64,000 bases of DNA. It comes from a virus. Position 1 is the first letter of the stretch. Each line of letters starts with the position of its first letter. The stretch lies in IMG/VR virus record IMGVR_UViG_3300005676_000004. One strand, written 5' to 3'. Position numbers and translations under genes: made by a program. The notes beneath the pieces are model-generated. The model was not told where the DNA came from and ran no database searches. It was given only the letters and a program-made list of their open reading frames with translations. Of this stretch, positions 17,631 to 64,000 are shown piece after piece.

Positions 17631-17640
17631 GATATTTATA
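17631..17640 (+). promoter_or_regulatory. GATATTTAT motif (putative late promoter) upstream of the lysozyme gene
   Basis: Intergenic; the same motif occurs at 22371, 40111, 52712, 56116 and 63006. Confidence 0.55.
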
Positions 17641-49508: not shown

Positions 49509-52500
49509 ATGAAATTAATGCCAAAGACTGTTTTGAGGTCTGATAGAATTACCGAAATTTCTAGGGTAATTCACGTAGCCGATGTCCATATCCGCAACTA
49601 CATTAGACATGACGAATATGGGGCTGTGTTCAAAAGATTGTATCAGCAATGTGAAGAGATAGTATCAAACGATAGCAATACTATTATCTATCTCGCCGGA
49701 GACATAGTTCACGCTAAGACTGATATGAGTCCTGAACTAATTGATGTTACTAGGACGTTCATACAGACTATGGCATCAATTGCTCCTGTCATATTGATAC
49801 CTGGTAATCACGATTGTAATCTAAACAATCCGAATCGGTTGGATGCGTTGACTCCGATAGTAGATTCGATTGACATACCCGACCTATTCTACTTAAAGAA
49901 TAGCGGAGTCTTTCAACTAGCGGGAGTTGATTTCATTCACAATTCAGTGTTTGACGATCCGAGTCAGTTTATACGTGCGAATGAAATTGATGGCAACACT
50001 ACGAAAATTGTTTTGTTTCACGGTGCGCTCAATAATGCTGTAAATGACCAAGGATTTCATTTAGAAAATGAGAATATAACGTTAGATATTTTCTCTGGGT
50101 TTGATTATGGATTCTTTGGAGACATTCATACCTTTCAATACCTAGATGATTCAAAGAGATTTGCGTATGCAGGATCGCTCATTCAACAGAATTTTGGGGA
50201 ATCACTTCAGCATGGTTTCATTGAGTGGGATATAAAAAATTCTACTAGTAAATTTCACCGTGTTAAGAATGATTGGGGCTATCATACCATTGATGTTGAA
50301 AACGGACAGATCGCAGAGCAAATTGAGTTGAGTCCGATTAGCAGAGTTCGTATACGGACATTCAATACTACTAGCTCCGATCTATTCAAGATTGTAACAA
50401 AAATTAAGACACTGTATACAATTGAAGATTTGCGAGTTCAAAAGTTCTCCGAATCTATTGAAGTCATGTCGGAGGATTCAAAGAACATATCATTAGTGAA
50501 CGTTCGTGATGTTGAATACCAGAACTCCTTAATTGCAGATTATGTACGTAAGACGTTTCAAGCAGACGATACCGCCGTGGCCTCGGTAATAGACATCAAT
50601 CGAGAGATTAATCATAGGTTGACAGTCAATTCGTCACTACGAAATGTAGTATGGACTCCTATTAAGTTTGAGTTCAGCAACATGTTTTCGTACGGAGAGA
50701 ACAATGTAATAAATTTTGATAAGCTACATGGGACGTATGGCATATTTGCCCCGAACGCATCTGGAAAGTCGTCTATACTTGACTCACTGATGTTCTGTAT
50801 TTTTGACAAATGTTCGCGTTCGTTTAAAGCAAGTCAAGTGCTGAATAACAAGAAAGATGAATTTTGGTGTAAACTACAGTTTAAGATAGGTGATAAAAAA
50901 TTCTTCATTGAGCGTTCTGGGAAGAAGAGTAGGTCTGGCCATGTAAAAGTGACTGTTGACTTTTGGTATGAAGATCAGGAAGGTCAGAAGCAATCTCTAA
51001 ATGGCGAAGATAGGGATGGAACTAACTTTGCAATTCGTAGTTATCTCGGGACATACGATGACTTTATCATTACGACGATGTCTCTACAAAAAGATAACAC
51101 AAACTTCATTGATAAACAACAGCGTGAACGAAAAGACTTACTAGCACAGTTTCTAGATTTAAATGTCTTTGAAGAGTTACAGCTAATTGCAACCGAAGAT
51201 AGTAAAGAAGTCCAGGCGGTAATGAAGAAGTTTGCTGGGGAAGAGTACTCAACTCAGATAGCAAATACTAGTGAATCGTTATTAACAAATCGTAAAAAAT
51301 TACAAGAATTGACAGAAACCAAAGATCAGTTAGTTCGTAAGATTCTTGATACAAACGATGTTGTGTTGGATTTGACTAAGCAACTTCATAAGGTTGACGG
51401 CAACTCTATGAATATTGACGTTAACGCGGAGACGCAAAACATCACAGATTCAAATGAAAAATTGTCAACTATACACGAAAAAATTTTAGATGTTGAGGCT
51501 CAAAAGCAACAGTTTGAAGCTGGCGTTCTAGAATTAAAAGCAAAGTTAGATGAGTACGATTCTAACGATATAGCTGAACGGAAGCAGAAGTTAGAAGATG
51601 CTAGCTCAAAACTTTCTGAACTTCGGACGTCTAAAATGAAGTTATCAACTGCAATACAAAACTTGAATGAGAAGGTTGAATCCTTAGAGAAATTTGAGTA
51701 TGATCCGGACTGTAAATTTTGCGTGGAGAACATCTTCGTTAAGGACGCTCTGCGGGCTAAGGAGTCTTTGCCTACGAAGATGCTTGAGCTTGCTGAGGTT
51801 GAATCTAATATAGTAACAACGAGTGAAATTAAGGAGTCACTATCATCAGTTTTGGATTCGGTTGCTAAGGTTAACGACCTCAACACCAAGATTATACGAG
51901 CGTATGACGTCATAAAGAAACTTGAAGGTGAGTTATCTACATTACACAGGATGTCTTCGCAGTTGAAGGAATCTATAGTTGCTTCGGAAAAGAAAATTTC
52001 AATGTACAATGAGAATCAAGATTCAATTGAACACAACAGGACTCTTGAACTGCGAATAGATCAATTGCAACTTGAGAGAGACCAGTTTACGGCATCACTT
52101 CAGTCAACCGAAAGTTCCATAGTATCGACGTCAAACCGTGTGTCTGTTATGGAACGAGAGATAAAAGAGTGTACTGATGCGTTAGCTGAATTGAAAATTC
52201 TTGAGCAAAAGCAAGCTGCTTTTGACATGTATTTAGCTGCTGTGAACAGAAATGGAGTCCCATACGATCTGATAGGGTCTATCATTCCTAGAATACAAAA
52301 TGAGGTTAACAGTATACTGTCTCAGATTGTAGACTTTGAGATTTTGTTTGAGACTGATGGAAAGAGTATAAATGCTTACATTGTCTACGGGGAGGAAGAT
52401 TTTTGGCCCCTTGAAATGACGTCGGGGATGGAGCGGTTCATATCGTCTCTTGCAATTCGTACGGCATTGATTAACGTCTCTACGTTGTCTCACCCGAATT

Positions 52501-52691
52501 TCATAGTCATTGACGAGGGCTTTGGTGTCTTAGATTCCAACAATTTGAACTCGTTGTACTCGTTGTTTGACTACTTAAAGACGAATTTTGACTTCATTTT
52601 TGTTATCTCACACCTAGATGCGTTGCGGGATATAATGGATAACATCGTTGATATTCAAAAAATTGATGGAGTTTCCATGCTTCAGTACTGA
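49509..52691 (+). CDS. fused Mre11/SbcD nuclease - Rad50/SbcC ATPase (T4 gp47-gp46 fusion)
   Basis: ADVH, GDIVH, GNHD, GDIH phosphoesterase motifs; Walker A PNASGKSS; Zn-hook CKFC; signature TSGME; Walker B VIDEGFG.LD; ISH; all in one 1060-aa ORF. Confidence 0.92.
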   Translation: MKLMPKTVLRSDRITEISRVIHVADVHIRNYIRHDEYGAVFKRLYQQCEEIVSNDSNTIIYLAGDIVHAKTDMSPELIDVTRTFIQTMASIAPVILIPGNHDCNLNNPNRLDALTPIVDSIDIPDLFYLKNSGVFQLAGVDFIHNSVFDDPSQFIRANEIDGNTTKIVLFHGALNNAVNDQGFHLENENITLDIFSGFDYGFFGDIHTFQYLDDSKRFAYAGSLIQQNFGESLQHGFIEWDIKNSTSKFHRVKNDWGYHTIDVENGQIAEQIELSPISRVRIRTFNTTSSDLFKIVTKIKTLYTIEDLRVQKFSESIEVMSEDSKNISLVNVRDVEYQNSLIADYVRKTFQADDTAVASVIDINREINHRLTVNSSLRNVVWTPIKFEFSNMFSYGENNVINFDKLHGTYGIFAPNASGKSSILDSLMFCIFDKCSRSFKASQVLNNKKDEFWCKLQFKIGDKKFFIERSGKKSRSGHVKVTVDFWYEDQEGQKQSLNGEDRDGTNFAIRSYLGTYDDFIITTMSLQKDNTNFIDKQQRERKDLLAQFLDLNVFEELQLIATEDSKEVQAVMKKFAGEEYSTQIANTSESLLTNRKKLQELTETKDQLVRKILDTNDVVLDLTKQLHKVDGNSMNIDVNAETQNITDSNEKLSTIHEKILDVEAQKQQFEAGVLELKAKLDEYDSNDIAERKQKLEDASSKLSELRTSKMKLSTAIQNLNEKVESLEKFEYDPDCKFCVENIFVKDALRAKESLPTKMLELAEVESNIVTTSEIKESLSSVLDSVAKVNDLNTKIIRAYDVIKKLEGELSTLHRMSSQLKESIVASEKKISMYNENQDSIEHNRTLELRIDQLQLERDQFTASLQSTESSIVSTSNRVSVMEREIKECTDALAELKILEQKQAAFDMYLAAVNRNGVPYDLIGSIIPRIQNEVNSILSQIVDFEILFETDGKSINAYIVYGEEDFWPLEMTSGMERFISSLAIRTALINVSTLSHPNFIVIDEGFGVLDSNNLNSLYSLFDYLKTNFDFIFVISHLDALRDIMDNIVDIQKIDGVSMLQY

Positions 52692-52697
52692 CGATGA

Positions 52698-52745
52698 AGT
52701 TCCTCTAATGGGATATTTATAGGTATCCCCAAACCTAGAGGAACT
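52698..52745 (+). promoter_or_regulatory. hairpin containing the putative late-promoter motif and the RBS of 52747
   Basis: AGTTCCTCTA/TAGAGGAACT 10-bp stem plus inner GGGATA/TATCCC stem; GATATTTATA in the inner stem and loop; GAGGA in the 3' arm. Confidence 0.75.
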
Positions 52746-52746
52746 A

Positions 52747-55476
52747 ATGCAAGAAAAGAAACGAAATAAGAAAAGTCTGGATAAGGTTGTTACGAGATTT
52801 ATAGACGTCTCGTCGCAAACCTCCCCAGACTTTTTTAATATCGTAGACATTCCAGCCCAACTTACTGCTGGAAAAAATGTCATTAAGCTCAATCCATTGT
52901 TGTCTAGATTCTCAACGAAAGACCCAATTCAGATTGAGGTTTTGGATGCTAATGGTGATCAAATTTATCATGAGGTGTTGACATACAAGGATGAAGATGA
53001 TTCCATCTATGTAGTCGTATATATCTATGAGACAACTCCCGCTGGAAATGCTACTCTGACAATACTCGGTAGTATTGTGGTGGATGAGGAGTTAAAGTCA
53101 ATACCACCGAATGAATTAAAATCTAATAATTTCAAGTTTCAGCGTAGGATTTACGTCAATCCAATAAAGGTCAATAACTCTGACCTTATTCACATTGACG
53201 AGCCAAATGTTACTATTGAGGAACGTAGATTTTCAATTGTAGAGGAGCAGTTCCTTACTAGGAAGATTGGTGTGAATCTCGGTTCTGGTTCGTATGTGCT
53301 AAACAGCGAGTATCCGTCATTTTTTTCCATAACATCTCCATTTACGAAGGATATGGAAGGCGGCACGATACGCTTTAAAAGTTTAGGATCAAATTATCAA
53401 CCAGCGGCACAATTTACAACTGGAAGTTTTCAGTACACTTCTGAGATTAGAGAAGTGTTGACTCCAAATCACATGATTCTTGAGGACCCAGCTTATGTTC
53501 ACGGTAGCGTTGATCAGATACAGAGAATTTTACAGATACCAAGGCAACAATATGAGATAACGCACTCGCTCACTCCTAACAGCCAATTGATTACACAGAA
53601 TGTCAAGTCGTATGCAAAGATTGATGTCGATGGATTAGACCCAGATTCTGGAACCGTTGATCGTATTAAAGTCTTCTACAAGACAACGTTTAAGCCAAAA
53701 AGTGATTATGAATTAGTTTACGATGAACTAGTTACTCCTAGAAATTTACTCGTAGATACGAATTCAGATACAGTTGAATATGAGTTCGGTGTATTCAAAG
53801 GCACGGAGACCTTTTACGTCCCAACTAACCCAGCACCGATGATACGTAACGCCGTTAACTATTGGTCTGGAACTGTGGTAGGTCAGTTAGGTGCAGCTAA
53901 TCTCACGACCAATAATACAAATTTGTTTGGGTCGTTAGTAGTTACAACATCAGTCCCAATTTCAGGATCAACTGAAATTCATTTGCGTCATACTGCTAGT
54001 ATAAACGTTCCGTTCTATACTGATACGACGTATAAAGTTTTGGTCGATTACTTTATTGATACTACAACACTTGATGCTCGTGGCCCAAAACTTGATTTCT
54101 ATCTAACTGGAAGTGCGTTCGTAAATAACTCAGCGTACGGTAAACATGTAGGCTCTATTCCCTCAAGCTCTCAGTATGAGACTATTAAATTGGGTTATGA
54201 AGTACCATTTACGCCCGATAATGATGGCACTGGCCGATTGATGATGTCAATACGAGAAGGTGTCATTATATCTAATATCAGAATAGTAGAGGATGTTCAG
54301 AGAGGTTTCACTCCGAATCGAACTAGATTATACGTTCCAATTAGTCAACATCATAGAAGTGAGTATCTAGATTTTAAAATAGAATTCTTTAACAATGACA
54401 TGAAGCAAGGAAACGTTTCGGTTGAAGTTAAAGACACACTATTTCTTGGTGGTAACAACTACATCTATGGTTCTGATAACTTAGTTACTGGCTCACAATA
54501 TTTGTCCCCGTTCACATCTAGTGGCATACAGTTAGCAGCAGACATTGCTTTCACGGGGTCTCAGTATGTTAGTGGCTCTACTATTAAGAGTTATGGTTAT
54601 GGTGGTCTTAGTCAAGCAATTAATAACCCCAGTGATAATTCAAAGTTTGGATGGGGTCTTACCACACACGATCCATATGTGACTGGCGTTGACACTGGAA
54701 AAAGTGTTCAAATGATAAACGAATGTGGTTCTGTGTTTGAGCATAGGTCATCACCGCCATCCATGAAACTTTTTATGGTAGGTCAGAACTCTAGATTTGT
54801 TGTTGGTTGCAGTGGATCGTCTGCGCAAATTGGAGACGGCTCCCCAGCCGCCGACTGTTGTAATGGTACGTGCGGCGATTCATACGTTAAGTGGGATGGC
54901 TGTAAGATAATAATCAAGGGTGCAGTCGATGAGAACGGAAATCCTATAGGTGCTGGTAGTGGGTCATCGGGTCAAGATGGGCAAGATGGTTCTAGTGGAA
55001 CTAGTGGTAGTAGTGGTGGTAATGGAACTAGCGGATCGTCTGGACAAAACGGCTCATCGGGAACATCCGGCGGTAGCGGTACTAGTGGCTCCTCGGGATC
55101 AAGCGGTTCTTCCGGTAGTAGTGGATCATCGGGATCATCGGGATCAAGCGGTTCTACGGGAACGTCTGGCTCAAGTGGTTCTAGCGGAACTAGCGGCACT
55201 AGTGGAAGCAGTGGAAGCAGTGGCACTAGTGGAAGCAGTGGAACTAGCGGATCGTCTGGAACAAGTGGTTCTAGTGGAACTAGTGGTAGTAGTGGAAGCA
55301 GTGGAACTAGCGGATCATCTGGAAGTAGCGGGGCCGATGGCACTATGACAGATTGTTGTGATTGCGTCCCATTAATGGCTGAAGTGGTTCAATGGGTAAA
55401 TTCGGGAATGCCTTCATCCGTTACACCTGGAACATTCCCATTGTTGCATAACTGCGGATATGTAACATGGTCTTAA
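52747..55476 (+). CDS. large virion/fibre protein with a C-terminal Gly-X-Ser collagen-like repeat
   Basis: About 40+ consecutive G-[S/T/Q]-[S/D/N] triplets at about 54950-55340, flanked by Cys-Cys motifs. Confidence 0.85.
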   Translation: MQEKKRNKKSLDKVVTRFIDVSSQTSPDFFNIVDIPAQLTAGKNVIKLNPLLSRFSTKDPIQIEVLDANGDQIYHEVLTYKDEDDSIYVVVYIYETTPAGNATLTILGSIVVDEELKSIPPNELKSNNFKFQRRIYVNPIKVNNSDLIHIDEPNVTIEERRFSIVEEQFLTRKIGVNLGSGSYVLNSEYPSFFSITSPFTKDMEGGTIRFKSLGSNYQPAAQFTTGSFQYTSEIREVLTPNHMILEDPAYVHGSVDQIQRILQIPRQQYEITHSLTPNSQLITQNVKSYAKIDVDGLDPDSGTVDRIKVFYKTTFKPKSDYELVYDELVTPRNLLVDTNSDTVEYEFGVFKGTETFYVPTNPAPMIRNAVNYWSGTVVGQLGAANLTTNNTNLFGSLVVTTSVPISGSTEIHLRHTASINVPFYTDTTYKVLVDYFIDTTTLDARGPKLDFYLTGSAFVNNSAYGKHVGSIPSSSQYETIKLGYEVPFTPDNDGTGRLMMSIREGVIISNIRIVEDVQRGFTPNRTRLYVPISQHHRSEYLDFKIEFFNNDMKQGNVSVEVKDTLFLGGNNYIYGSDNLVTGSQYLSPFTSSGIQLAADIAFTGSQYVSGSTIKSYGYGGLSQAINNPSDNSKFGWGLTTHDPYVTGVDTGKSVQMINECGSVFEHRSSPPSMKLFMVGQNSRFVVGCSGSSAQIGDGSPAADCCNGTCGDSYVKWDGCKIIIKGAVDENGNPIGAGSGSSGQDGQDGSSGTSGSSGGNGTSGSSGQNGSSGTSGGSGTSGSSGSSGSSGSSGSSGSSGSSGSTGTSGSSGSSGTSGTSGSSGSSGTSGSSGTSGSSGTSGSSGTSGSSGSSGTSGSSGSSGADGTMTDCCDCVPLMAEVVQWVNSGMPSSVTPGTFPLLHNCGYVTWS

Positions 55477-55490
55477 TATTGAGGTAACCT

Positions 55491-56117
55491 ATGATAAGTG
55501 CATCTATTAGTATGAGTGTAGTTCACTCCTATTCGCAGCAACCGCTGGAAACATATCCAGGGGCAGCATACCCGACGGGATCATTCTATTACAATTCAGC
55601 ATCTGGCTCCGCATTTATTTATAACGGTAATCGGTTTGTAAATTTGTTTGGTTCGTCTGGTACAAGTGGACAGTCTGGTACGTCGGGGACAAGTGGTCAA
55701 AATGGTACGAGTGGAACTAGTGGTACTAGCGGAACTAGTGCTGGTAGCGGTTCTTTAGTCCTCATATATCACGACGAAACTGCAATTACAGATACGGTCA
55801 CTAACTCAAATGCTAAAACGTATACATTGGCATCCAATACATATAGTAAAATTTTAGCAGAGACCGAAATATTTTTACGATCTCAGGCGGACACCCAATC
55901 CATAGTTCAGTTTCAATTATTTATGTCCGGAAGTTTAGCACGAGCACTTACGCTACGGGCAGATGCTACTGGAACTGGTGACGTGTTTACGGATGGTACT
56001 ATAATCAAATATATTAGACCACTAGCCACTGGAGGTGACATAGAAGTAAAAGTTACTGTAAACGCTGGAGCTGGAACATGGACAGTTGAATCGCTTAGAG
56101 TCTATGGCATAACTTGA
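55491..56117 (+). CDS. fibre-associated protein with a short Gly-Thr-Ser repeat
   Basis: About 10 GTS/GQS triplets; GAGG upstream. Confidence 0.8.
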   Translation: MISASISMSVVHSYSQQPLETYPGAAYPTGSFYYNSASGSAFIYNGNRFVNLFGSSGTSGQSGTSGTSGQNGTSGTSGTSGTSAGSGSLVLIYHDETAITDTVTNSNAKTYTLASNTYSKILAETEIFLRSQADTQSIVQFQLFMSGSLARALTLRADATGTGDVFTDGTIIKYIRPLATGGDIEVKVTVNAGAGTWTVESLRVYGIT

Positions 56118-56124
56118 TATTTAT
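56116..56124 (+). promoter_or_regulatory. GATATTTAT motif (putative late promoter)
   Basis: At the stop of 55491..56117, 30 nt upstream of 56155. Confidence 0.5.
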
Positions 56125-56154
56125 AGATAATACCTTACTACCGAGAGAAATGGA

Positions 56155-57501
56155 TTGCCAGGTCAATTTGAAAGAAATTTAGCAGATTTTAAGGTCTCCG
56201 AGTCATTTTGGAGATTGATGCAGACTGACCCACAGGATGATCGTACTCTTATTGATGGTACTGGATCGCTAGTTACTTATCTAGTCATATCGGGTACACT
56301 TGATGCATACTCGCTACGAGGTGATGGTTTTAACATCACAAATCTCAATCTTAGTAACTATTCGTTAGTTAGTGGCTCTGGACAAATTGCCAATCTTCTT
56401 CGTGATACCGATTTAGCGGTTAGAACTATAACTGCACAGCAGATGGTTATTTCATCTTCTGTGTATCATGTTACATCATCATTTAGTAGCGGATCAACCA
56501 TATTTGGTAACTCTGCCGATGATATACATCAATTTACTGGATCAGTATTAGTATCCGGATCAATTACTGGCACTATATTCACATCGTCTATAAACAATTT
56601 TGATGTTGAAGTGTCAAGAAGTATTGCAGCCGCAGGGTTTGCTGCTACTCTCCCCAGTGGAGTCGTTTCGTCATCTGTGCAGACTATACAGCATTTGACT
56701 GGTACAAATATAGTGTCTGGCTCTGGGCAACGTGGAGTTCTTGGATTAGGAACGACTGATAATGTAACCTTTGCAGTTATATCTGGATCAAGCGGTCATT
56801 TCGGTGGTAACGTTATCATTGATGGAGTGTTAACTGCTAGGGCATACTATGTATCTGCTTCTGTAATAAACAAAGAGATATTAAATGTTTCTGGATCGTC
56901 GTTCTTCGGTAATAGTTCTGACGACGTACATCAATTTACAGGGTCCATGTACGTATCTGGAAGTGTAACTGCTAACTCGTTCTTAGGAACGTTTGAGGGT
57001 GCAATATCATCTTCAGCTCAGATTTCCGCGTTAGGTTTCATAAGTGGTAGCGGCTCTTTCAATGGCAGTGTGGAGTGGGATAACGTCATAAATAAACCAT
57101 CCGGTATCGTCTCATCATCCACACAGACTATATCGCATTTAGTTGGAACGAATATTGTATCAGGATCGGGACAGCGCGGAGTTTTAGGTCTCTCTGAAAC
57201 CGATTCACCCACATTTCAAAACATTTCTGCAACCAATGGAAATTTTGATGGAAATGTTCTTATTTCCGGTACGTTAACAGCACGAGCATTTATAGTATCA
57301 GCGTCGGTAATAAACAAAGAAATCATCAATGTCTCCGGCTCATCGTTCTTTGGTAACAGCTTTGACGACGTGCATCAGTTCACAGGATCACTGTCTGTTA
57401 CTGGTTCGTTTATAGTACCAACTGTAAATAATCTTATCACTGCACCCGCTACTATAGGTAGTTTGGTAATGTATCAAGATGAGCTTTATATTTATATGTA
57501 A
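56155..57501 (+). CDS. Ser/Gly-rich tail-fibre-like protein with an internal duplication
   Basis: Three SGS..FGNS.DD.HQFTGS motifs; a ~100-aa segment is duplicated. Confidence 0.8.
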   Translation: MPGQFERNLADFKVSESFWRLMQTDPQDDRTLIDGTGSLVTYLVISGTLDAYSLRGDGFNITNLNLSNYSLVSGSGQIANLLRDTDLAVRTITAQQMVISSSVYHVTSSFSSGSTIFGNSADDIHQFTGSVLVSGSITGTIFTSSINNFDVEVSRSIAAAGFAATLPSGVVSSSVQTIQHLTGTNIVSGSGQRGVLGLGTTDNVTFAVISGSSGHFGGNVIIDGVLTARAYYVSASVINKEILNVSGSSFFGNSSDDVHQFTGSMYVSGSVTANSFLGTFEGAISSSAQISALGFISGSGSFNGSVEWDNVINKPSGIVSSSTQTISHLVGTNIVSGSGQRGVLGLSETDSPTFQNISATNGNFDGNVLISGTLTARAFIVSASVINKEIINVSGSSFFGNSFDDVHQFTGSLSVTGSFIVPTVNNLITAPATIGSLVMYQDELYIYM

Positions 57502-57522
57502 CTCAATCAACTAATACGTGTT

Positions 57523-60500
57523 TTGTTTATGATCCAGACAGCAGATGGTAATCCGCGATTGCGAAAGTTATTGTTTGTGGCTCCGCATTTGTCAACGGGT
57601 GGTATGCCACAATATCTATTAAAGATGATAGAATCTATGAAGGATTCGTTTGACGTCTATTGTTTTGAATACAGTCATGTATCTGACAAGTTTATAGTCC
57701 AAAGAGATAAGATACGAAATTTACTAGGGACATCGTTTTATTCGGTTACTGCTGGTATGACATTACCCGATGTAGTTAAAGCTGTATCCCCCGACATCAT
57801 ACACTTGCAAGAGTTACCAGAATATTTCATGCATCCGGACGATTGTAATTTTTTGTACACCGCCGATAGAAATTTCTTTATAGTAGAAACTTCACACGAT
57901 TCATCGTTCAACCCCGATAATAAGAAGTGGTTTCCTGATCAATTTGTTTTAGTGTCTAGATACCAAAAAGAGTTGTTATCAAAGCTGAATATTCCAATTG
58001 AGATTATTGAGTATGATATTGAGAAACACCCTCGGCAAGACAGGGAGATTGGGTTGACTGCGTTGAATCTAAATCCATCATTGAAGCATGTCTTAATGGT
58101 TGGTTTGTTCACACCTCGTAAAAATCAAAAAGAATTTATTGAATATGCTAGATCGTTAGAGTCATATCCAATACAATTCCACATTGTTGGTAATATGGCG
58201 GATAATTTCGCGGCGTATTGGACTCCGCTAGTGTCTGACTTACCATCTAATGTTGTCGTTTGGGGAGAACGTGGTGATGTTGATAGATTTTATTCTTGCA
58301 TGGATTTGTTCTTATTCACATCTAGGGGATCAGATCATGACAAGGAAACTAGTCCACTTGTAATTCGCGAAGCACTGTCATATCAGTTACCAATCCTAAT
58401 ATACAATCTTCCAGTGTATATGGGCATGTATGACAGATTTGACAACATTCGGTATCTATCTACTAAATTTGAAGATAACATTAAGAAAATTTTAGAAATT
58501 TTGAATCTAGATACTAGTTTCCAATTTGATACTATCAAGACTCCAGACTTTGTGTATACTAGACAAGACATTGAGAAAATTTCAAAATGCACGTCTATGT
58601 TAGAAGCTATGGATATCAATGGGGTTAGTTACGATGGTATGGTTTGGGGAATCTTCTGCCATAAGGAAATGGACCGTCATGGATTAAGAATTCAGCCAGG
58701 AGATGTGTTTCTTGATTTGGGTGCTAACGTCGGTATGTCATCTATGTATGCTAAGTTAGCTGGAGCTTCTAAGATTTATTGTGTTGAGCCTGATCCAGTT
58801 ATGGTGAAGTTCATTCAACAAAATTTACAAGATAATGTAACAATTCTAGAATGCGCTGTTTGGTCAGAACCTAGAACACTTGATTTATATCATTGGCCAG
58901 GAAATCCTTCGCAGGGTGGCAATCTCTATACAACTAAAACTAGGACGTTATCTGATATACTTAACGAGCTTGATCATCGTATTATTGATTATGTGAAGAT
59001 GGACGTTGAAGGTTCGGAAGGAGAGATATTGACGTCAACGCCTCAACGGTATCTGCGTAGAATTAAGAAGATGTTCATTGAACATCACTACCCAGCTAAA
59101 ACTCACCTGTTAGTTGAACATTTAACTGAATCTGGATTTACCGTGGTAGTTGAAAACGGTTCTGGACAAGACTACTTGTATTGTACGAATCAGATGCTCA
59201 CTGATTATGATACGGCTAAGTTATCAATTACGTTTAATCCCGATACTAATGAATTTAGGTATCAAGTAAATAAAAACATAGATGATTTTAGGTTAGTAAT
59301 TCGTGACAAGCAATCTAGTAGCATATTGTGGACTGTTAAGTACTCAGCTATACACCAAAACTCATCGTATTGGGTGATACCGTTTCCAGTGGATTTTATT
59401 AAAATTCAAGACGATCCTAACATTGGTAGCCTAGTTTTTGATGTGTATAGCGGGGAGAAACTCATAACCTCGGAAGAAATCAAGATTAAAGATGTTCCTA
59501 ATGTAGATAACTACATACCGTTACTTGAAAATAATACAGAACCAAATTACATAAACTATCGTGAGTTTTTTGTATCAAAAATTTATGATGATGTTTTATC
59601 CGCTGATTATAACTTAGTTGTTGATGTTGGTGCTAACGTTGGTATGTGGGTTGAATACATAAAGAATCGCGTACCATCTGCTGAAATTGTGTGCCTTGAA
59701 CCAAACGACGTTGCACATAAACTGCTAACACAGTCGTTTAGACATGACAGTAGTGTTACGGTTATAAAGTGCGCTTTGCATACGGAAGATACTTCGCTTG
59801 ACTTCTTTACTAACCCCAACAACTCAACAATATCTTCCGCATACAATACAACGGACAAGTCATCAGTCTATAAGGTAGACGCTATATCGATAGATACTCT
59901 CCGAGAAAACATTGGTAATAAGATGATTGATCTTATGAAAATTGACATAGAGGGTGGTGAGTACGATCTAATTAATTCAATGCAAGATTTTGATTTCGTT
60001 CGTGAGTTTCTTATTGAGTATCATATCTTCAACAATTATACTATGGATGACGTTAATCGGTTGTGTAATCATTTGGCCGAGAACATGTTTATAGTCGACA
60101 TGCGAGTCATGCATAACGGCGGTGGATTTATTCACGCTAAACGGGCAACTGAGAAACGGAATAGCAAGATTCCTTTTAAGGTTAAAGCAGTTCATTTACT
60201 ATTAGATAGTGACACTGTAAAAGATCAACAGGACAAGTCAATAGAAAACATATCTAGCGTTTGCTCTGAGTTAGGGATAGAGTATGTTCAGCATATCAAC
60301 CAGTTATATGTTGACATACCTCCAATTCAAAGGTGTAGGTATCCTACTGATGTAACTTCTGGAAAACTTCGTTCCGAACATTATGGATGTTATGATTCAT
60401 TCAAATGTGCCATATTATCCGAATGTACTAAAGATTATGATCTAGTTTTATTTTTTGAAGGCGACGCGCAGATACGGGATTCGTTTAATTTTGCAAAAGC

Positions 60501-60852
60501 GTTGACACATGCAATAGATAACCAATTGAATGGGTATATTTCGTTTGGTGGTAAGTATGATATAGAAACTAGTTTCTTACAATCACACACTATATCTACG
60601 CTGAGTGGTGGGTTCATAACGACAAACAAGATAATAGGGTGTCAATGTATAGCATTTACTCCGGCCATTATCAATAGTATCAAGACGTTACTTAGAACTG
60701 AAAAGTGGTGTGCTTGGGACATATTTCTGAATATCATCACAGAGGAAAACGGTATAACGAAGATAGTCACCGAGAAAACTATAGTATCTCAGTTTGATGG
60801 GGTTTCAACAATAGATTCGGTTATGAAGAAGTTTAGGAAAGATTTACCATGA
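57523..60852 (+). CDS. multidomain glycosyltransferase: GT-B (GT4-like), two FkbM methyltransferases, GT-A-like domain
   Basis: APHLSTGGMPQ, VG..TPRKNQ, E.SPLVIREA; FLDLGANVG...KMDVEGSE; VDVGANVG...KIDIEGGE; HYGCYDSF...FFEGDA. Confidence 0.85.
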   Translation: MFMIQTADGNPRLRKLLFVAPHLSTGGMPQYLLKMIESMKDSFDVYCFEYSHVSDKFIVQRDKIRNLLGTSFYSVTAGMTLPDVVKAVSPDIIHLQELPEYFMHPDDCNFLYTADRNFFIVETSHDSSFNPDNKKWFPDQFVLVSRYQKELLSKLNIPIEIIEYDIEKHPRQDREIGLTALNLNPSLKHVLMVGLFTPRKNQKEFIEYARSLESYPIQFHIVGNMADNFAAYWTPLVSDLPSNVVVWGERGDVDRFYSCMDLFLFTSRGSDHDKETSPLVIREALSYQLPILIYNLPVYMGMYDRFDNIRYLSTKFEDNIKKILEILNLDTSFQFDTIKTPDFVYTRQDIEKISKCTSMLEAMDINGVSYDGMVWGIFCHKEMDRHGLRIQPGDVFLDLGANVGMSSMYAKLAGASKIYCVEPDPVMVKFIQQNLQDNVTILECAVWSEPRTLDLYHWPGNPSQGGNLYTTKTRTLSDILNELDHRIIDYVKMDVEGSEGEILTSTPQRYLRRIKKMFIEHHYPAKTHLLVEHLTESGFTVVVENGSGQDYLYCTNQMLTDYDTAKLSITFNPDTNEFRYQVNKNIDDFRLVIRDKQSSSILWTVKYSAIHQNSSYWVIPFPVDFIKIQDDPNIGSLVFDVYSGEKLITSEEIKIKDVPNVDNYIPLLENNTEPNYINYREFFVSKIYDDVLSADYNLVVDVGANVGMWVEYIKNRVPSAEIVCLEPNDVAHKLLTQSFRHDSSVTVIKCALHTEDTSLDFFTNPNNSTISSAYNTTDKSSVYKVDAISIDTLRENIGNKMIDLMKIDIEGGEYDLINSMQDFDFVREFLIEYHIFNNYTMDDVNRLCNHLAENMFIVDMRVMHNGGGFIHAKRATEKRNSKIPFKVKAVHLLLDSDTVKDQQDKSIENISSVCSELGIEYVQHINQLYVDIPPIQRCRYPTDVTSGKLRSEHYGCYDSFKCAILSECTKDYDLVLFFEGDAQIRDSFNFAKALTHAIDNQLNGYISFGGKYDIETSFLQSHTISTLSGGFITTNKIIGCQCIAFTPAIINSIKTLLRTEKWCAWDIFLNIITEENGITKIVTEKTIVSQFDGVSTIDSVMKKFRKDLP

Positions 60853-62951
60853 GAATAGCACAAGTTACCCCAGGACTGATTCCTATACCACCAAATGGAT
60901 GGGGGGCTGTTGAGAAAATTATTTGGGAGTATGTTACTCACCTGCGCAAAGACGGTCATTCGGTTGACATAGTGTCCATAGATGAGGCCATTAGTAATCA
61001 TAAACGTTACGATGTAATACACGTACACATGTGGAATCACGCGCTTATGCTGTATCAGAGTAATGTAGCATACGTGTTTACATTTCACGATCATCATGCG
61101 TTTGCGTATGGTAAATCCTCAGTTAACTACAACAACAATTTATTAGCCATGCAACGTGCGGCGTTGGCAATTGTCCCAGCTCAATATCTAGTTGAATACT
61201 TTGATGACATTCCAGTGTACCTATCGCATGGTATAGATTTATCGCGATACTATCCAGCTACGTATGAACCAACTGGAACGTGCAGAGTTTTGTGTGTTGG
61301 AAATAACGGGTTTGGAGGAGATTCTTCTTTTGATAGGAAGGGATTCATTTATGCAGTTCAAGCTGCCAAGACGTATGACTTCCCTATAACGATTTGTGGT
61401 CCACGACGTAATAACGAGGAGTTTTTTGAAGCACATCAAGATGAATTTGATTATCATAAGTTAACAATCCTATATGATCTCACTGATGATGAATTGATTG
61501 AACAATATCATAGCCATGATGTGTTGATACATGCTTCATCGATAGAAGCTGGACATCCCCCGTTAACTCTTCTTGAAGCTGCTGCATGTGGGCTACCAAT
61601 AATCTCCACTGATTGTGCTGGAGAATTGCATCACATACGAGTTGAAAGAGAATTGGAGTCAATCATCACAGGCATTCGAATGTTTGCCACTGGACCTGAA
61701 ATTCATAGATTCAAAACGTTTTCATCTGTTCATACGTACGACTGGGGTGTGATATGTGCAGATTTGGCTAGTTTGTACACTAGTATAGTATCTCCGAATA
61801 TGCGTTCAAGTATGTTAAGGGTTTACAATAAACTTCGTAAACGAAAAAATACAGACGTGATGAATATCAACTTCATTGACGGTGCGTTCTTTGAACTTCT
61901 TAGCCAACATAGTAAAGGAATTGATGTCCAGTTCATAGACCAGACTAACAATGAAGTCGTGTATTCAACTCATATAAGAAGTAACCAATGGGCTAAATGC
62001 AATAGGCGTTGGTTTACCCCGTGGAAGATTAGAGTTCTCAGTGACGACGGGCATTTCGTTGAGCATACATTTAACTTGAATGGTAAGAGAGTATTAATTT
62101 CCATGGAGTCTTCTGCGCTAGGAGACACGATAGCGTGGATACCATATGTTGAGAAATTTAAGAACAAGCATAATTGTCATATTATAGTATCAACTTTTCA
62201 TAACGACTTGTTTGCGGAAGCGTATCCTGAGTTGGAATTTGTTGCTCCTGGGACGGTAGTTGATGATTTATACTCAAAATTTTCATTAGGTCTTTGGTAT
62301 GACGATGGACAATTTAACTCACTCTTTCATCCTAGGGATACGCGAACAATTTCATTACAACAAATTGCGTGTGACATACTCGGGTTAGAATATGAAGAGT
62401 TGCGTCCTAGATTGATGGCAGAACTCATTGAAAATATACCGGATGATTTCGTTTGCATAGCACCATACAGCACGGCTCAGGCGAAATTCTGGAACAATCC
62501 CACTGGATGGCAAGAGGTTGTTGATTATTTTAGGTCAAAAAACAAAGTAGTTTTTCTTCTATCTAAGGAGGAAAATGGGTTTATGGGTAATCACGATCCA
62601 GTTGGGGTAGTTCGACTCAATGGTTTAACAACTAGACAGTTAGCGTTTGTATTGTCAAAATGTTCATTATTTGTTGGTTTAAGCTCTGGATTATCCTGGT
62701 TAGCATGGGCAGTCGGCGCACCAACAACGCTGATTAGTGGTTTCACACCACCAGATTTAGAGATGCAGTCTGGTGTCCTTAGAGTTACAAATCCACACGT
62801 ATGTAATAGTTGTACTCTACGGCATTTTTTTGATAGAGGAGACTGGAACTGGTGTCCTGATCATAAGAATGATTCCCAACGATTTATTTGCTCAACTTCA
62901 ATAGCTGGGGCTGATGTGATAAGAGCTATTCAAGAAACGTATGGAATGTAA
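60849..62951 (+). CDS. GT4-like glycosyltransferase fused to a TibC/AAH-type (autotransporter) O-heptosyltransferase-like domain
   Basis: N-terminal PP.GWGAVE...EAGHPPLTLLEAAACG; C-terminal KRVLIS.ES.ALGDTIAW.PY, GLSSGLSWLAWA, ISGF, and four Cys in VCNSC...FDRGDWNWCP.H...FICS. Confidence 0.85.
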   Translation: MRIAQVTPGLIPIPPNGWGAVEKIIWEYVTHLRKDGHSVDIVSIDEAISNHKRYDVIHVHMWNHALMLYQSNVAYVFTFHDHHAFAYGKSSVNYNNNLLAMQRAALAIVPAQYLVEYFDDIPVYLSHGIDLSRYYPATYEPTGTCRVLCVGNNGFGGDSSFDRKGFIYAVQAAKTYDFPITICGPRRNNEEFFEAHQDEFDYHKLTILYDLTDDELIEQYHSHDVLIHASSIEAGHPPLTLLEAAACGLPIISTDCAGELHHIRVERELESIITGIRMFATGPEIHRFKTFSSVHTYDWGVICADLASLYTSIVSPNMRSSMLRVYNKLRKRKNTDVMNINFIDGAFFELLSQHSKGIDVQFIDQTNNEVVYSTHIRSNQWAKCNRRWFTPWKIRVLSDDGHFVEHTFNLNGKRVLISMESSALGDTIAWIPYVEKFKNKHNCHIIVSTFHNDLFAEAYPELEFVAPGTVVDDLYSKFSLGLWYDDGQFNSLFHPRDTRTISLQQIACDILGLEYEELRPRLMAELIENIPDDFVCIAPYSTAQAKFWNNPTGWQEVVDYFRSKNKVVFLLSKEENGFMGNHDPVGVVRLNGLTTRQLAFVLSKCSLFVGLSSGLSWLAWAVGAPTTLISGFTPPDLEMQSGVLRVTNPHVCNSCTLRHFFDRGDWNWCPDHKNDSQRFICSTSIAGADVIRAIQETYGM

Positions 62952-62995
62952 CTAACTCATCTAATGAGGTAGTATAACATATTCTCCTAAGATTG

Positions 62996-63047
62996 TGCTC
63001 GTATTGATATTTATAGGCGTAAGAACTTGTAAATATTTCTACGAGCA
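62996..63047 (+). promoter_or_regulatory. hairpin enclosing a GATATTTAT motif (63006-63014)
   Basis: TGCTCGTA/TACGAGCA outer stem and ATATTTA/TAAATAT inner stem, upstream of 63105. Confidence 0.55.
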
Positions 63048-63104
63048 TTTATTCTTTTAGCGCATGTTTGGTGGTAATTTCACTAGCAAAAAGCGGAGAC
63101 TCTA

Positions 63105-64000
63105 TTGAGCGGATACAAAAAAGTTATAGTAAGTGGTAGTAATGCGGAACTAGGTTCATTACTTGTAACTGGAGATACTACAGTCACTGGCTCTGTTGAG
63201 ATTTCAGGAAGTTTGGTAATTAACGGAGTAAGTTTACCAAATGGCAGTGGTTCTGGAACATCTGGAACGAGTGGAGCATCTGGTTCTTCCGGTACGAGTG
63301 GTAATAGTGGTTCAAGCGGAACGTCGGGATCATCTGGAACAAGTGGACAGACTGGTTCATCGGGAACATCTGGAAATAGCGGGAGCAGTGGGACAAGTGG
63401 TTCTAGTGGACAGAATGGTTCGTCTGGAACAAGTGGAAGCAGTGGAACCAGTGGACAGAGCGGAAGCAGTGGATCAAGCGGAACATCTGGAAGTACGGGT
63501 ACAAGTGGCACTAGTGGGCAGAGCGGAAGCAGCGGTACTAGTGGTTCAAGTGGAAGCAGTGGAAGCAGTGGAAGCAGTGGAAGTACTGGTACAAGCGGTA
63601 CAAGCGGCACAAGCGGCATAAGTGGATCAAGCGGAACATCCGGCAACTCAGGCTCTTCGGGAACATCTGGAAGTACTGGTACTAGCGGTACGAGTGGAAA
63701 TTCTGGAGATAGATATACTACTACATCATCAACTTCCAATACAATCGGCACTGGAACTAAATCCTTTGTAGTGGAAACTGGGTTAGCACTTAGTATAGGG
63801 CAAAATGTAATTTGTGCGTTTGATGAAAATGCTAAGTTAGAAGGAAATATTACCTCTTATAATTCATTGACTGGTGACCTAGACATTAATGTTACTAGTA
63901 CAGTTGGCTCTGGAACTTACGCAGTATGGTCAATTTCATTATCGGGTGCTCCGGGGCCAGCGGGAACAAGTGGCTCTAGCGGAAGCAGTGGAACAAGTGG
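63105..64000 (+). CDS. Gly-X-Ser collagen-like fibre protein, runs off the window end (absent from the ORF track)
   Basis: TTG start after GGAG, in-frame TAG at 63084; hand translation MSGYKKVIVSGSNAELGSL..., about 50 G-[T/S]-S triplets, a globular module, then more GTS/GSS; open to 64000. Confidence 0.85.
   Translation, partial: MSGYKKVIVSGSNAELGSLLVTGDTTVTGSVEISGSLVINGVSLPNGSGSGTSGTSGASGSSGTSGNSGSSGTSGSSGTSGQTGSSGTSGNSGSSGTSGSSGQNGSSGTSGSSGTSGQSGSSGSSGTSGSTGTSGTSGQSGSSGTSGSSGSSGSSGSSGSTGTSGTSGTSGISGSSGTSGNSGSSGTSGSTGTSGTSGNSGDRYTTTSSTSNTIGTGTKSFVVETGLALSIGQNVICAFDENAKLEGNITSYNSLTGDLDINVTSTVGSGTYAVWSISLSGAPGPAGTSGSSGSSGTS

Follow-up and report, generated by a model that had tools for sequence, protein, structure and literature searches.

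A TibC/AAH-family glycosyltransferase beside proline-free Gly-X-Ser collagen-like fibre genes: a candidate virion O-glycosylation module in a T4-like jumbo phage

What do two large glycosylation enzymes modify when their genes lie among the fibre genes of a phage? The question is raised by one end of a 64,000-nucleotide stretch of DNA (hereafter the window; G000:C1:61080-125079, minus strand) from the 253,401-bp IMG/VR virus record IMGVR_UViG_3300005676_000004, which is rated 100% complete and whose source virus is a T4-like jumbo phage. From position 52747 to the window edge, six plus-strand genes (gpA to gpF) follow one another at spacings of 14-153 nucleotides (nt) or with a 4-nt overlap. 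An earlier note, made from the sequence alone, had claimed that three of these genes (52747, 55491, 63105) carry long Gly-X-Y tracts of mostly Ser and Thr, that two glycosylation enzymes sit between them, and that the phage O-glycosylates its own fibres. The tracts were confirmed, with 43, 10, and 51 triplets inside the window, and so were the enzymes gpD (57523..60852) and gpE (60849..62951), both of which are multi-domain proteins and whose genes overlap by 4 nt between the fibre genes. The most likely explanation on comparative evidence is that the phage sugar-coats its own fibres, because the pairing of enzyme and tract recurs in many phages and in some bacteria, and we judge it probable that the cluster encodes a protein O-glycosylation module by which the phage modifies the fibres of its own virion. 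Its features, with protein lengths in amino acids (aa) and GT4 and GT25 denoting glycosyltransferase families, are as follows.

52747..55476, plus strand: gpA, a 909-aa fibre protein with an N-terminal fibre domain, a C-terminal Gly-X-Ser tract, and a Cys-rich tip
54961..55347, plus strand: Gly-X-Y tract of gpA, 43 uninterrupted triplets (aa 739-867), no Pro
55491..56117, plus strand: gpB, a small collagen-like protein of 208 aa ending in a globular domain
55650-55739, plus strand: Gly-X-Y tract of gpB, 10 perfect triplets (aa 54-83), no Pro
56155..57501, plus strand: gpC, a 448-aa Ser-rich, non-collagen repeat protein with three FGNSxDDxHQFTGS units and 20 [ST]-G-[ST] motifs
57523..60852, plus strand: gpD, a 1109-aa multi-domain enzyme with a GT4 domain (about aa 142-331), an FkbM methyltransferase domain (395-522), a second FkbM domain (701-840), and a putative GT25-like domain (870-1109)
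60849..61868, plus strand: N-terminal half of gpE, a retaining-type GT4 domain (Pfam PF00534, PF13692, PF13439)
61869..62936, plus strand: C-terminal half of gpE, a TibC/AAH-family protein O-glycosyltransferase domain (aa 341-696) with an iron finger
63105..64000 (window edge), plus strand: gpF, a giant collagen-like fibre with 51 triplets inside the window

The C-terminal domain of gpE genuinely belongs to the TibC/AAH family on three counts: hidden Markov model, sequence match, and fold. The 700-aa protein, a fusion of GT4 and TibC/AAH domains, scores 272.1 bits with the family model TIGR04414 (cut-off 200; model positions 15-373 of 374), and a six-frame search of the genome with the same model gives 274 bits. 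Its match by sequence in the PDB is TibC (4RAP, E 1.9e-55), and its AlphaFold model, with a predicted local distance difference test (pLDDT) value of 85.6, has 4RAP and 4RB4 as top Foldseek matches, superposing on TibC over about 375 of 381 residues with a TM-score of 0.85 (TibC-normalised) and a root-mean-square deviation of 2.7 A; the fold so matched comprises an N-terminal beta-barrel, a GT-B-like catalytic domain, a thumb, and the iron finger. Both comparisons that the earlier note had suggested for 60849..62951, viz. with TIGR04414 and with the structure of TibC, thus bear out its assignment, and the ALGDTIAW and GLSSGLSW motifs and the four Cys residues that it had read there are all present. 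In TibC, Asp110 serves as the catalytic base, Thr226 and Lys230 as beta-phosphate ligands, and Trp305 as a sugar ligand (PMC4358343). All four residues are kept in gpE, Asp110 as Asp426, and do not vary among 82 phage homologues and 18 bacterial sequences of phage type; the iron-finger Cys (339, 342, 358, and 370), likewise all present in gpE, are invariant in the 82 phage homologues. Pro300 is replaced by Ser, as in AAH, and the tip of the thumb (Phe265 and Val266 in TibC) reads Phe-Met in gpE and Tyr-Met in most phage members.

The remaining domains of the two enzymes also point to the building of a glycan. A fold search with the N-terminal half of gpE matches MshA, the alpha-1,2-glucosyltransferase tll1591, BshA, and PimA. 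The gpD protein matches Pfam Glyco_trans_1_4, Glycos_transf_1, and Methyltransf_21 (89.6 bits), as well as TIGR01444 in two stretches (151 bits), and an Atlas feature search places its C-terminal domain at 0.92-0.94 to viral clusters, part of which carry PF01755 (Glyco_transf_25), so that its GT25-like nature is to be taken as a lead. Together, gpD and gpE contain four glycosyltransferase-type domains and two FkbM methyltransferase domains.

The genes of the candidate acceptors, gpA, gpB, and gpF, are the sole long Gly-X-Y genes of the 253-kb genome, and all of them lie within 14 kb around the glycosyltransferase. The full gpF gene ends beyond the window at extended coordinate 66497 (G000:C1:58583-61975, minus strand) and encodes 1130 aa with a total of 240 triplets, in tracts of 51, 182, and 7, and with two globular inserts or ends. 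On the Pfam Collagen model (PF01391; cut-off 27.2 bits) gpF scores 86.5 bits and gpA 54.4 bits, and gpB, with 19.8 bits, stays under the cut-off; gpA also matches PHROG tail-fibre families, along its tract only. The X positions of the tracts are mostly Ser or Thr, and Ser occupies Y in 248 of 286 triplets (87%). Neither the gpA nor the gpB tract has any Pro, and the two main gpF tracts have two in 233 triplets. A helix-stabilising composition, viz. Pro-rich or charged residues at X and Y, is not seen in these tracts, Pro making up 0-1% of the X/Y positions and charged residues being nearly absent. The Ser codons at Y are of both the AGY and the TCN type and the DNA repeats of the tracts match at 64-90% only, which indicates that the periodicity is kept at the protein level and does not reflect a recent slippage array. 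Profile searches matched no family for gpC, a protein on which the earlier note was silent.

A three-copy structure model of gpB is consistent with assembly through its tract. The model gave an ipSAE interface score of 0.87, which is the model's own confidence, against 0.00 for the best control; the chains touch one another through residues 52-91, a stretch that includes the entire tract. Agreement between the trimer runs was 84% of contacts or more, with a partner pLDDT of 75 or higher. The mark of 0.87 was attained by 21 of 30 proteins solved as one-chain pairs and by none of 23 solved as single chains, a calibration made on two copies, and a pass for a trimer may reflect likeness to solved trimeric fibres. 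As a separate observation, the Gly-X-Ser tracts (window 54950-55348 and 63083-63751) can also be read without stop codons in other frames and from the complementary strand (e.g., 222 aa on the minus strand at 63083..63751), and gene callers may call spurious or wrong-strand genes over them.

Enzyme and tract are also linked in other phages. The TibC/AAH family is very large in metagenomes, where fusions of GT4 and TibC domains, about 695 aa long, turn up repeatedly. Its phage carriers comprise four GenBank phages only, including the cultured Microcystis phage Mel-JY01, and about 260 of 2.9 million IMG/VR viral contigs; a megablast search of the 12-kb region against GenBank phages gave zero matches. 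In what follows, GT denotes the TibC-like glycosyltransferase, and its fused or multi-domain forms are counted apart from stand-alone forms. In a forward test on 82 phage loci with flanks of 10 kb on either side, an S/T-rich Gly-X-Y gene was found within 10 kb of 17 of the 21 multi-domain GTs, often directly adjacent, and of 3 of the 61 stand-alone GTs. The positive loci are spread over eight or more deep branches of the GT tree and the stand-alone forms make up one derived clade; this tree is a quick version, rooted on bacterial enzymes, in which long rows, including the protein of the window itself, are placed unsurely.

The stand-alone clade might be taken as a counter-example free of Gly-X-Ser proteins, and the earlier note had named the occurrence of the GT in related phages lacking such proteins as evidence against its idea. 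This interpretation was rejected when pattern searches of whole genomes revealed long tracts at a distance. In near-complete genomes with stand-alone GTs, the tracts lie about 50 kb from the enzyme and give 143, 143, and 98 pattern matches, compared with 0 in the control, the two genomes with 143 matches having identical GTs and thus representing one lineage. The gene adjoining the stand-alone GT on its upstream side encodes a fibre of more than 2250 aa (21% Ser plus Thr), the N-terminal part of which is homologous to gpA (residues 89-586, E 2e-14).

The reverse test, in which a 72-letter degenerate Gly-Ser/Thr-Ser DNA motif was the sole criterion for the retrieval of 80 viral loci, also recovered the enzyme. 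The GT was present in 5 of the 80 loci within the short stretch around the motif, in 14 of the 24 whole contigs with long tracts (12 of 22 after removal of two that were known beforehand), and in all four long-tract contigs that are at least 90% complete; most of the GT-negative contigs are fragments of 11-39% completeness. The co-occurrence that the earlier note had proposed to look for is thus strong in both directions across phages.

The same module is encoded by Mel-JY01, in which a 1226-aa FkbM-TibC fusion adjoins a collagen-like gene. Our literature search turned up no paper on this phage. At the start of its linear record (PP395634.1, 2-3052, plus strand) there is a 1016-aa open frame with 181 Gly-X-Ser triplets, which runs off the record start, and the GenBank annotation over this frame consists of minus-strand coding sequences at 1-651 and 739-2298 plus a short plus-strand coding sequence. 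Judged by its sequence, the collagen-like gene looks unannotated or mis-stranded.

Pairing of the GT with tract proteins extends to bacteria, for which 80 loci were analysed. In the bacterial GTs of phage type (Methylobacter, Polaromonas, and others), position 286 (TibC numbering) is mostly aliphatic and the thumb tip is Tyr-Met or His-Met; in 12 of 18 loci their genes directly adjoin one for a small protein that combines a lipoprotein signal with a (G-T/S-S)n tract, and four of the six misses are short or cut-off contigs. No (G-T/S-S)n neighbour was found in any of the 56 loci of canonical enzymes with Arg286 (Caballeronia, Pandoraea, enterobacteria), and the canonical plasmid members adjoin autotransporters. 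An intermediate bacterial group that retains Arg286 has (G-S/T-S)n neighbours in four of four loci. This group (L222, L225, L226, and L228) comes from metagenome-assembled genomes (MAGs) of Gammaproteobacteria and Arenicellales, the GT being flanked on either side by tract proteins in three of the loci, and those of its tract proteins that were read bear a lipoprotein signal. It may represent the ancestral state of a tract-glycosylating subfamily, possibly one still using ADP-heptose.

Which sugar the phage enzyme transfers is a separate question, and position 286 is central to it. In TibC, Arg286 contacts N1 of the adenine and is the basis of ADP-sugar specificity, and the R286A substitution abolishes or largely reduces activity (PMC4358343). 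This residue is Leu in gpE, the Arg is lost in 81 of 82 phage homologues (aliphatic in 79), and canonical bacterial members retain it. The sole phage GT of the 82 that retains Arg286, in a 238-kb contig (L029, IMGVR_UViG_3300043425_001539), branches nearest the bacterial enzymes and may have another substrate. Production of ADP-heptose by the phage itself was considered and rejected, as gmhA, rfaE domain I (the kinase), and PF01467 cytidylyltransferase-like genes are all absent from the 253-kb genome; gmhA is also absent from all six near-complete GT-bearing phage genomes tested. A cytidylyltransferase-like neighbour of the GT in stand-alone-GT phages and Mel-JY01 was likewise rejected as an ADP-heptose synthase, being weakly similar to nicotinamide mononucleotide adenylyltransferase (NMNAT) and not to RfaE. 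The heptose implied by the earlier note's assignment to a heptosyltransferase is accordingly doubtful as the transferred sugar, with ADP-heptose remaining one candidate donor among others and an unlikely one. The neighbour is a conserved protein of 640-970 aa with an N-terminal, weakly NMNAT-like nucleotidyltransferase domain and DUF5661 (e.g., L046:11545-14454 and L002:11243-13162); its gene directly follows that of the GT in Mel-JY01 and in 57 of the 61 phages with a stand-alone GT, and the genome of the window has no such gene.

The mechanism that we propose would operate in the cytoplasm of the infected cell, where the TibC-like domain of gpE would add the first sugar to Ser residues of the G-[S/T]-S tracts of gpA, gpB, and gpF. 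TibC acts on Ser followed by Gly, as in N-S-G-G, leaves Thr unmodified, and also takes synthetic peptides as substrates (PMC4358343); given this preference and this peptide acceptance, a Y-position Ser followed by Gly is a plausible acceptor, and such a Ser, in a setting that resembles the N-S-G-G site of TibA, would be the likeliest site. Modification would take place before or during trimer assembly. The GT4 domain of gpE, together with the GT4 and putative GT25-like domains of gpD, would then extend the glycan and the two FkbM domains of gpD would methylate it, so that these added domains build and cap a short glycan, and the presumably trimeric, collagen-like fibres would end up as densely glycosylated rods on the tail. 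The role of the tracts as acceptors, the order of these steps, their late-stage expression, and effects on helix stability, adhesion, or shielding are what we infer; that the glycan might stabilise the Pro-free helix is speculation on our part. A second glycan acceptor may possibly be gpC.

Several observations weigh against glycosylation of the tracts by this enzyme. Substrates established for the family are beta-helical passengers of autotransporters and not collagen-like tracts, and the lack of conservation of Arg286 puts donor use and even activity in doubt. The GT was not found in two fairly complete phage contigs that bear Gly-X-Ser tracts (84% and 77%), and the contig L029, which is 84% complete, has a GT and no Gly-X-Ser tract. 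The co-occurrence counts are only partly independent phylogenetically, the tree being a quick version, and some of the "bacterial" MAG contigs may be phage DNA, the locus L208 being identical to the viral locus L082.

The strongest alternative is that the fibres are indeed glycosylated, with the acceptors being Ser residues in strand-loop-strand repeats of beta-structured domains, as in TibA and AIDA-I, and with the tracts as bystanders or secondary targets. Such domains could be those of gpC, of the N-terminal part of gpA, and of the giant fibre beside the stand-alone GTs. TibC recognises a beta-helix and pulls the acceptor loop into its active site (PMC4358343), gpC with its many [ST]-G-[ST] motifs lies in the middle of the cluster, and the stand-alone GT adjoins the giant fibre related to the N-terminal domain of gpA while the Gly-X-Ser genes are far off. 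However, the bacterial neighbour of the GT consists of little beyond a signal peptide and a (G-T/S-S)n tract and has no beta-helix, the association at the genome level is with the tracts, and TibC modifies short peptides as well. We therefore regard this alternative as unlikely, and glycosylation of the tracts themselves as the better account.

A repeated motif in the cluster bears on the expression of enzymes and fibres. The sequence TATTTATA, often in the form GATATTTATAG, usually stands 10-100 nt upstream of structural-gene starts and is a candidate late promoter, distinct from the T4 motif TATAAATA. Four copies precede genes of the cluster.

52714..52721, plus strand: TATTTATA, 26 nt upstream of gpA
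56118..56125, plus strand: TATTTATA, 30 nt upstream of gpC
57489..57496, plus strand: TATTTATA, 27 nt upstream of gpD
63008..63015, plus strand: TATTTATA, 90 nt upstream of gpF

Across the genome there are 29 sense copies of TATTTATA versus 3 antisense copies, and the longer form ATATTTATAG occurs four times in the window against 0.28 expected. The position of the motif before fibre genes and gpD would fit a joint late expression. Further TATTTATA sites lie at window positions 17633, 20236, and 31226 and at extended coordinates 69044 and 74467.

These features also bear on the possibility that the glycosyltransferases remodel the host surface (the O-chain of lipopolysaccharide (LPS) or the capsule) against superinfection, their place among the fibre genes marking a hypervariable accessory region. 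This is the published interpretation of fibre-region glycosyltransferases in T4-like pelagimyophages (PMC7029224), and such domains as GT4, GT25-like, and FkbM are typically found in O-antigen synthesis. Nevertheless, TibC/AAH is a family of protein O-glycosyltransferases and not an LPS family, the late-type motif and the operon common with fibre genes in a lytic T4-like phage favour virion-directed action, and remodelling of the host surface would leave unexplained both the two-way G-[ST]-S association in phages and the GT-lipoprotein cassettes of bacteria; we consider it improbable. It is very improbable that the TibC-like domain is inactive or repurposed, e.g., to chaperone the assembly of trimeric fibres or to hold them as a ring-shaped scaffold, with the widespread loss of Arg286 marking lost nucleotide-sugar binding, since, even though TibC forms a dodecameric ring holding six rod-like substrates (PMC4358343), the invariance of Asp110, Thr226, Lys230, and Trp305 in phage and phage-type bacterial enzymes is hard to explain without catalysis and the recurrent fusion to further glycosyltransferase and methyltransferase domains argues for glycan building.

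Glycosylation of the virion's own fibres being the preferred explanation, the finding is best classed, from the sequences compared here, as a putative subfamily that is sister to the autotransporter heptosyltransferases and has acceptors of a new class. A more far-reaching version is offered tentatively and is possible, although it is less likely than the module itself: the phage-type enzymes would form an Arg286-less sister subfamily with a donor other than ADP-heptose, dedicated to G-[S/T]-S tracts, in which the glycan takes the place of hydroxyproline in stabilising Pro-free helices. Hundreds of aquatic phages would use this solution in their fibres, as would some bacteria in surface lipoproteins.

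Collagen-like proteins bearing glycans are known from bacteria and from a giant virus. The BclA-type exosporium proteins of Bacillus anthracis/cereus are collagen-like, with Gly-X-Thr triplets that are densely O-glycosylated, and form a hair-like surface nap; in contrast to the phage fibres, their triplets are Pro-rich (GPT), the rhamnose-anthrose glycan is added by unrelated enzymes, and they are not phage proteins. Mimivirus encodes both collagen-like fibril proteins and their glycosylating enzyme, L230, for its surface fibres; L230, however, belongs to an unrelated family, being a lysyl hydroxylase-glucosyltransferase whose target is hydroxylysine. Mimivirus also has a eukaryotic host, and its collagens include Pro and Lys.

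The closest relatives of the phage system by enzyme are TibC-TibA and AAH-AIDA-I of E. coli (bacterial autotransporter heptosyltransferases, BAHT; TIGR04414; 4RAP/4RB4), with which it shares family, fold, catalytic base, phosphate and sugar ligands, and iron-finger Cys, as well as the adjacency of the enzyme gene to a gene for a Ser-rich, repetitive, surface-exposed, rod-like protein. In these systems a soluble cytoplasmic enzyme performs multi-site O-glycosylation of Ser (PMC4358343). Unlike them, the phage GT has a Pro-free Gly-X-Ser collagen-like tract as its partner and no adjacent autotransporter gene, its Arg286 is replaced and its thumb tip differs, and it is phage-encoded, fused to a GT4 domain, and accompanied by more glycosyltransferase and FkbM domains; the fusion and the extra domains imply an oligosaccharide and not a single heptose. 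Mycobacteriophages use their own glycosyltransferases to decorate structural proteins of the phage, viz. capsid and tail tube (referred to in PMC11256854 and other papers), and they differ from the present system in enzyme families, in these targets, and in having no collagen-like tract. T4-like pelagimyophages and cyanomyophages carry hypervariable fibre-region glycosyltransferases that have been read as host O-antigen modifiers (PMC7029224). Like the phage of the window, these are aquatic T4-like phages with glycosyltransferase genes among tail-fibre genes, some of the latter with collagen repeats; the pelagimyophage paper (PMC7029224) connects those enzymes neither to collagen-like tracts nor to the TibC family, and our literature search found no paper linking the TibC/AAH (heptosyltransferase) family with collagen-like phage proteins.

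Should the tracts be glycosylated as proposed, tail fibres of phages would be added to the few virion parts known to carry glycans, and the "orphan" fibre-region glycosyltransferases of abundant aquatic T4-like phages would become virion-maturation enzymes and not host-surface modifiers. The TibC family would gain a new acceptor class, and the fibres would provide a natural system for studying how a proline-free collagen helix holds together. The GT and a (GTS)n tract could also serve as a simple enzyme-tag pair in protein glycoengineering. As the cultured Mel-JY01 carries the same module, the idea is directly testable.

The cluster lies in a tail-fibre and packaging module. Genes for the baseplate wedge and an SbcC-like protein are located 5' of the fibre genes; 3' of gpF there follow genes for a 399-aa protein, a tail-fibre protein, a virion structural protein, a tail-fibre assembly chaperone (PF16778), the large terminase (TerL), and a T4-type portal. 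The SbcC-like gene (window 49509-52691), which encodes a recombination nuclease subunit of T4 gp46 type, is unusually placed between large structural genes and the fibre cluster. The virion structural protein 3' of gpF (311 aa; L205:10048-10983, minus strand; extended coordinates 68098-69033) partly matches the catalytic domain of alpha-L-arabinofuranosidase B (PF09206, E 6e-10) and may represent a glycan-binding or glycan-cutting fibre tip. Elsewhere in the genome, a 1497-aa phage protein bears a C-terminal type IX secretion system (T9SS) sorting domain (G000:C1:184606-184800, minus strand; TIGR04183, 27.7 bits, cut-off 23), which suggests a Bacteroidota host and a phage protein that may be exported via the type IX system of that host.

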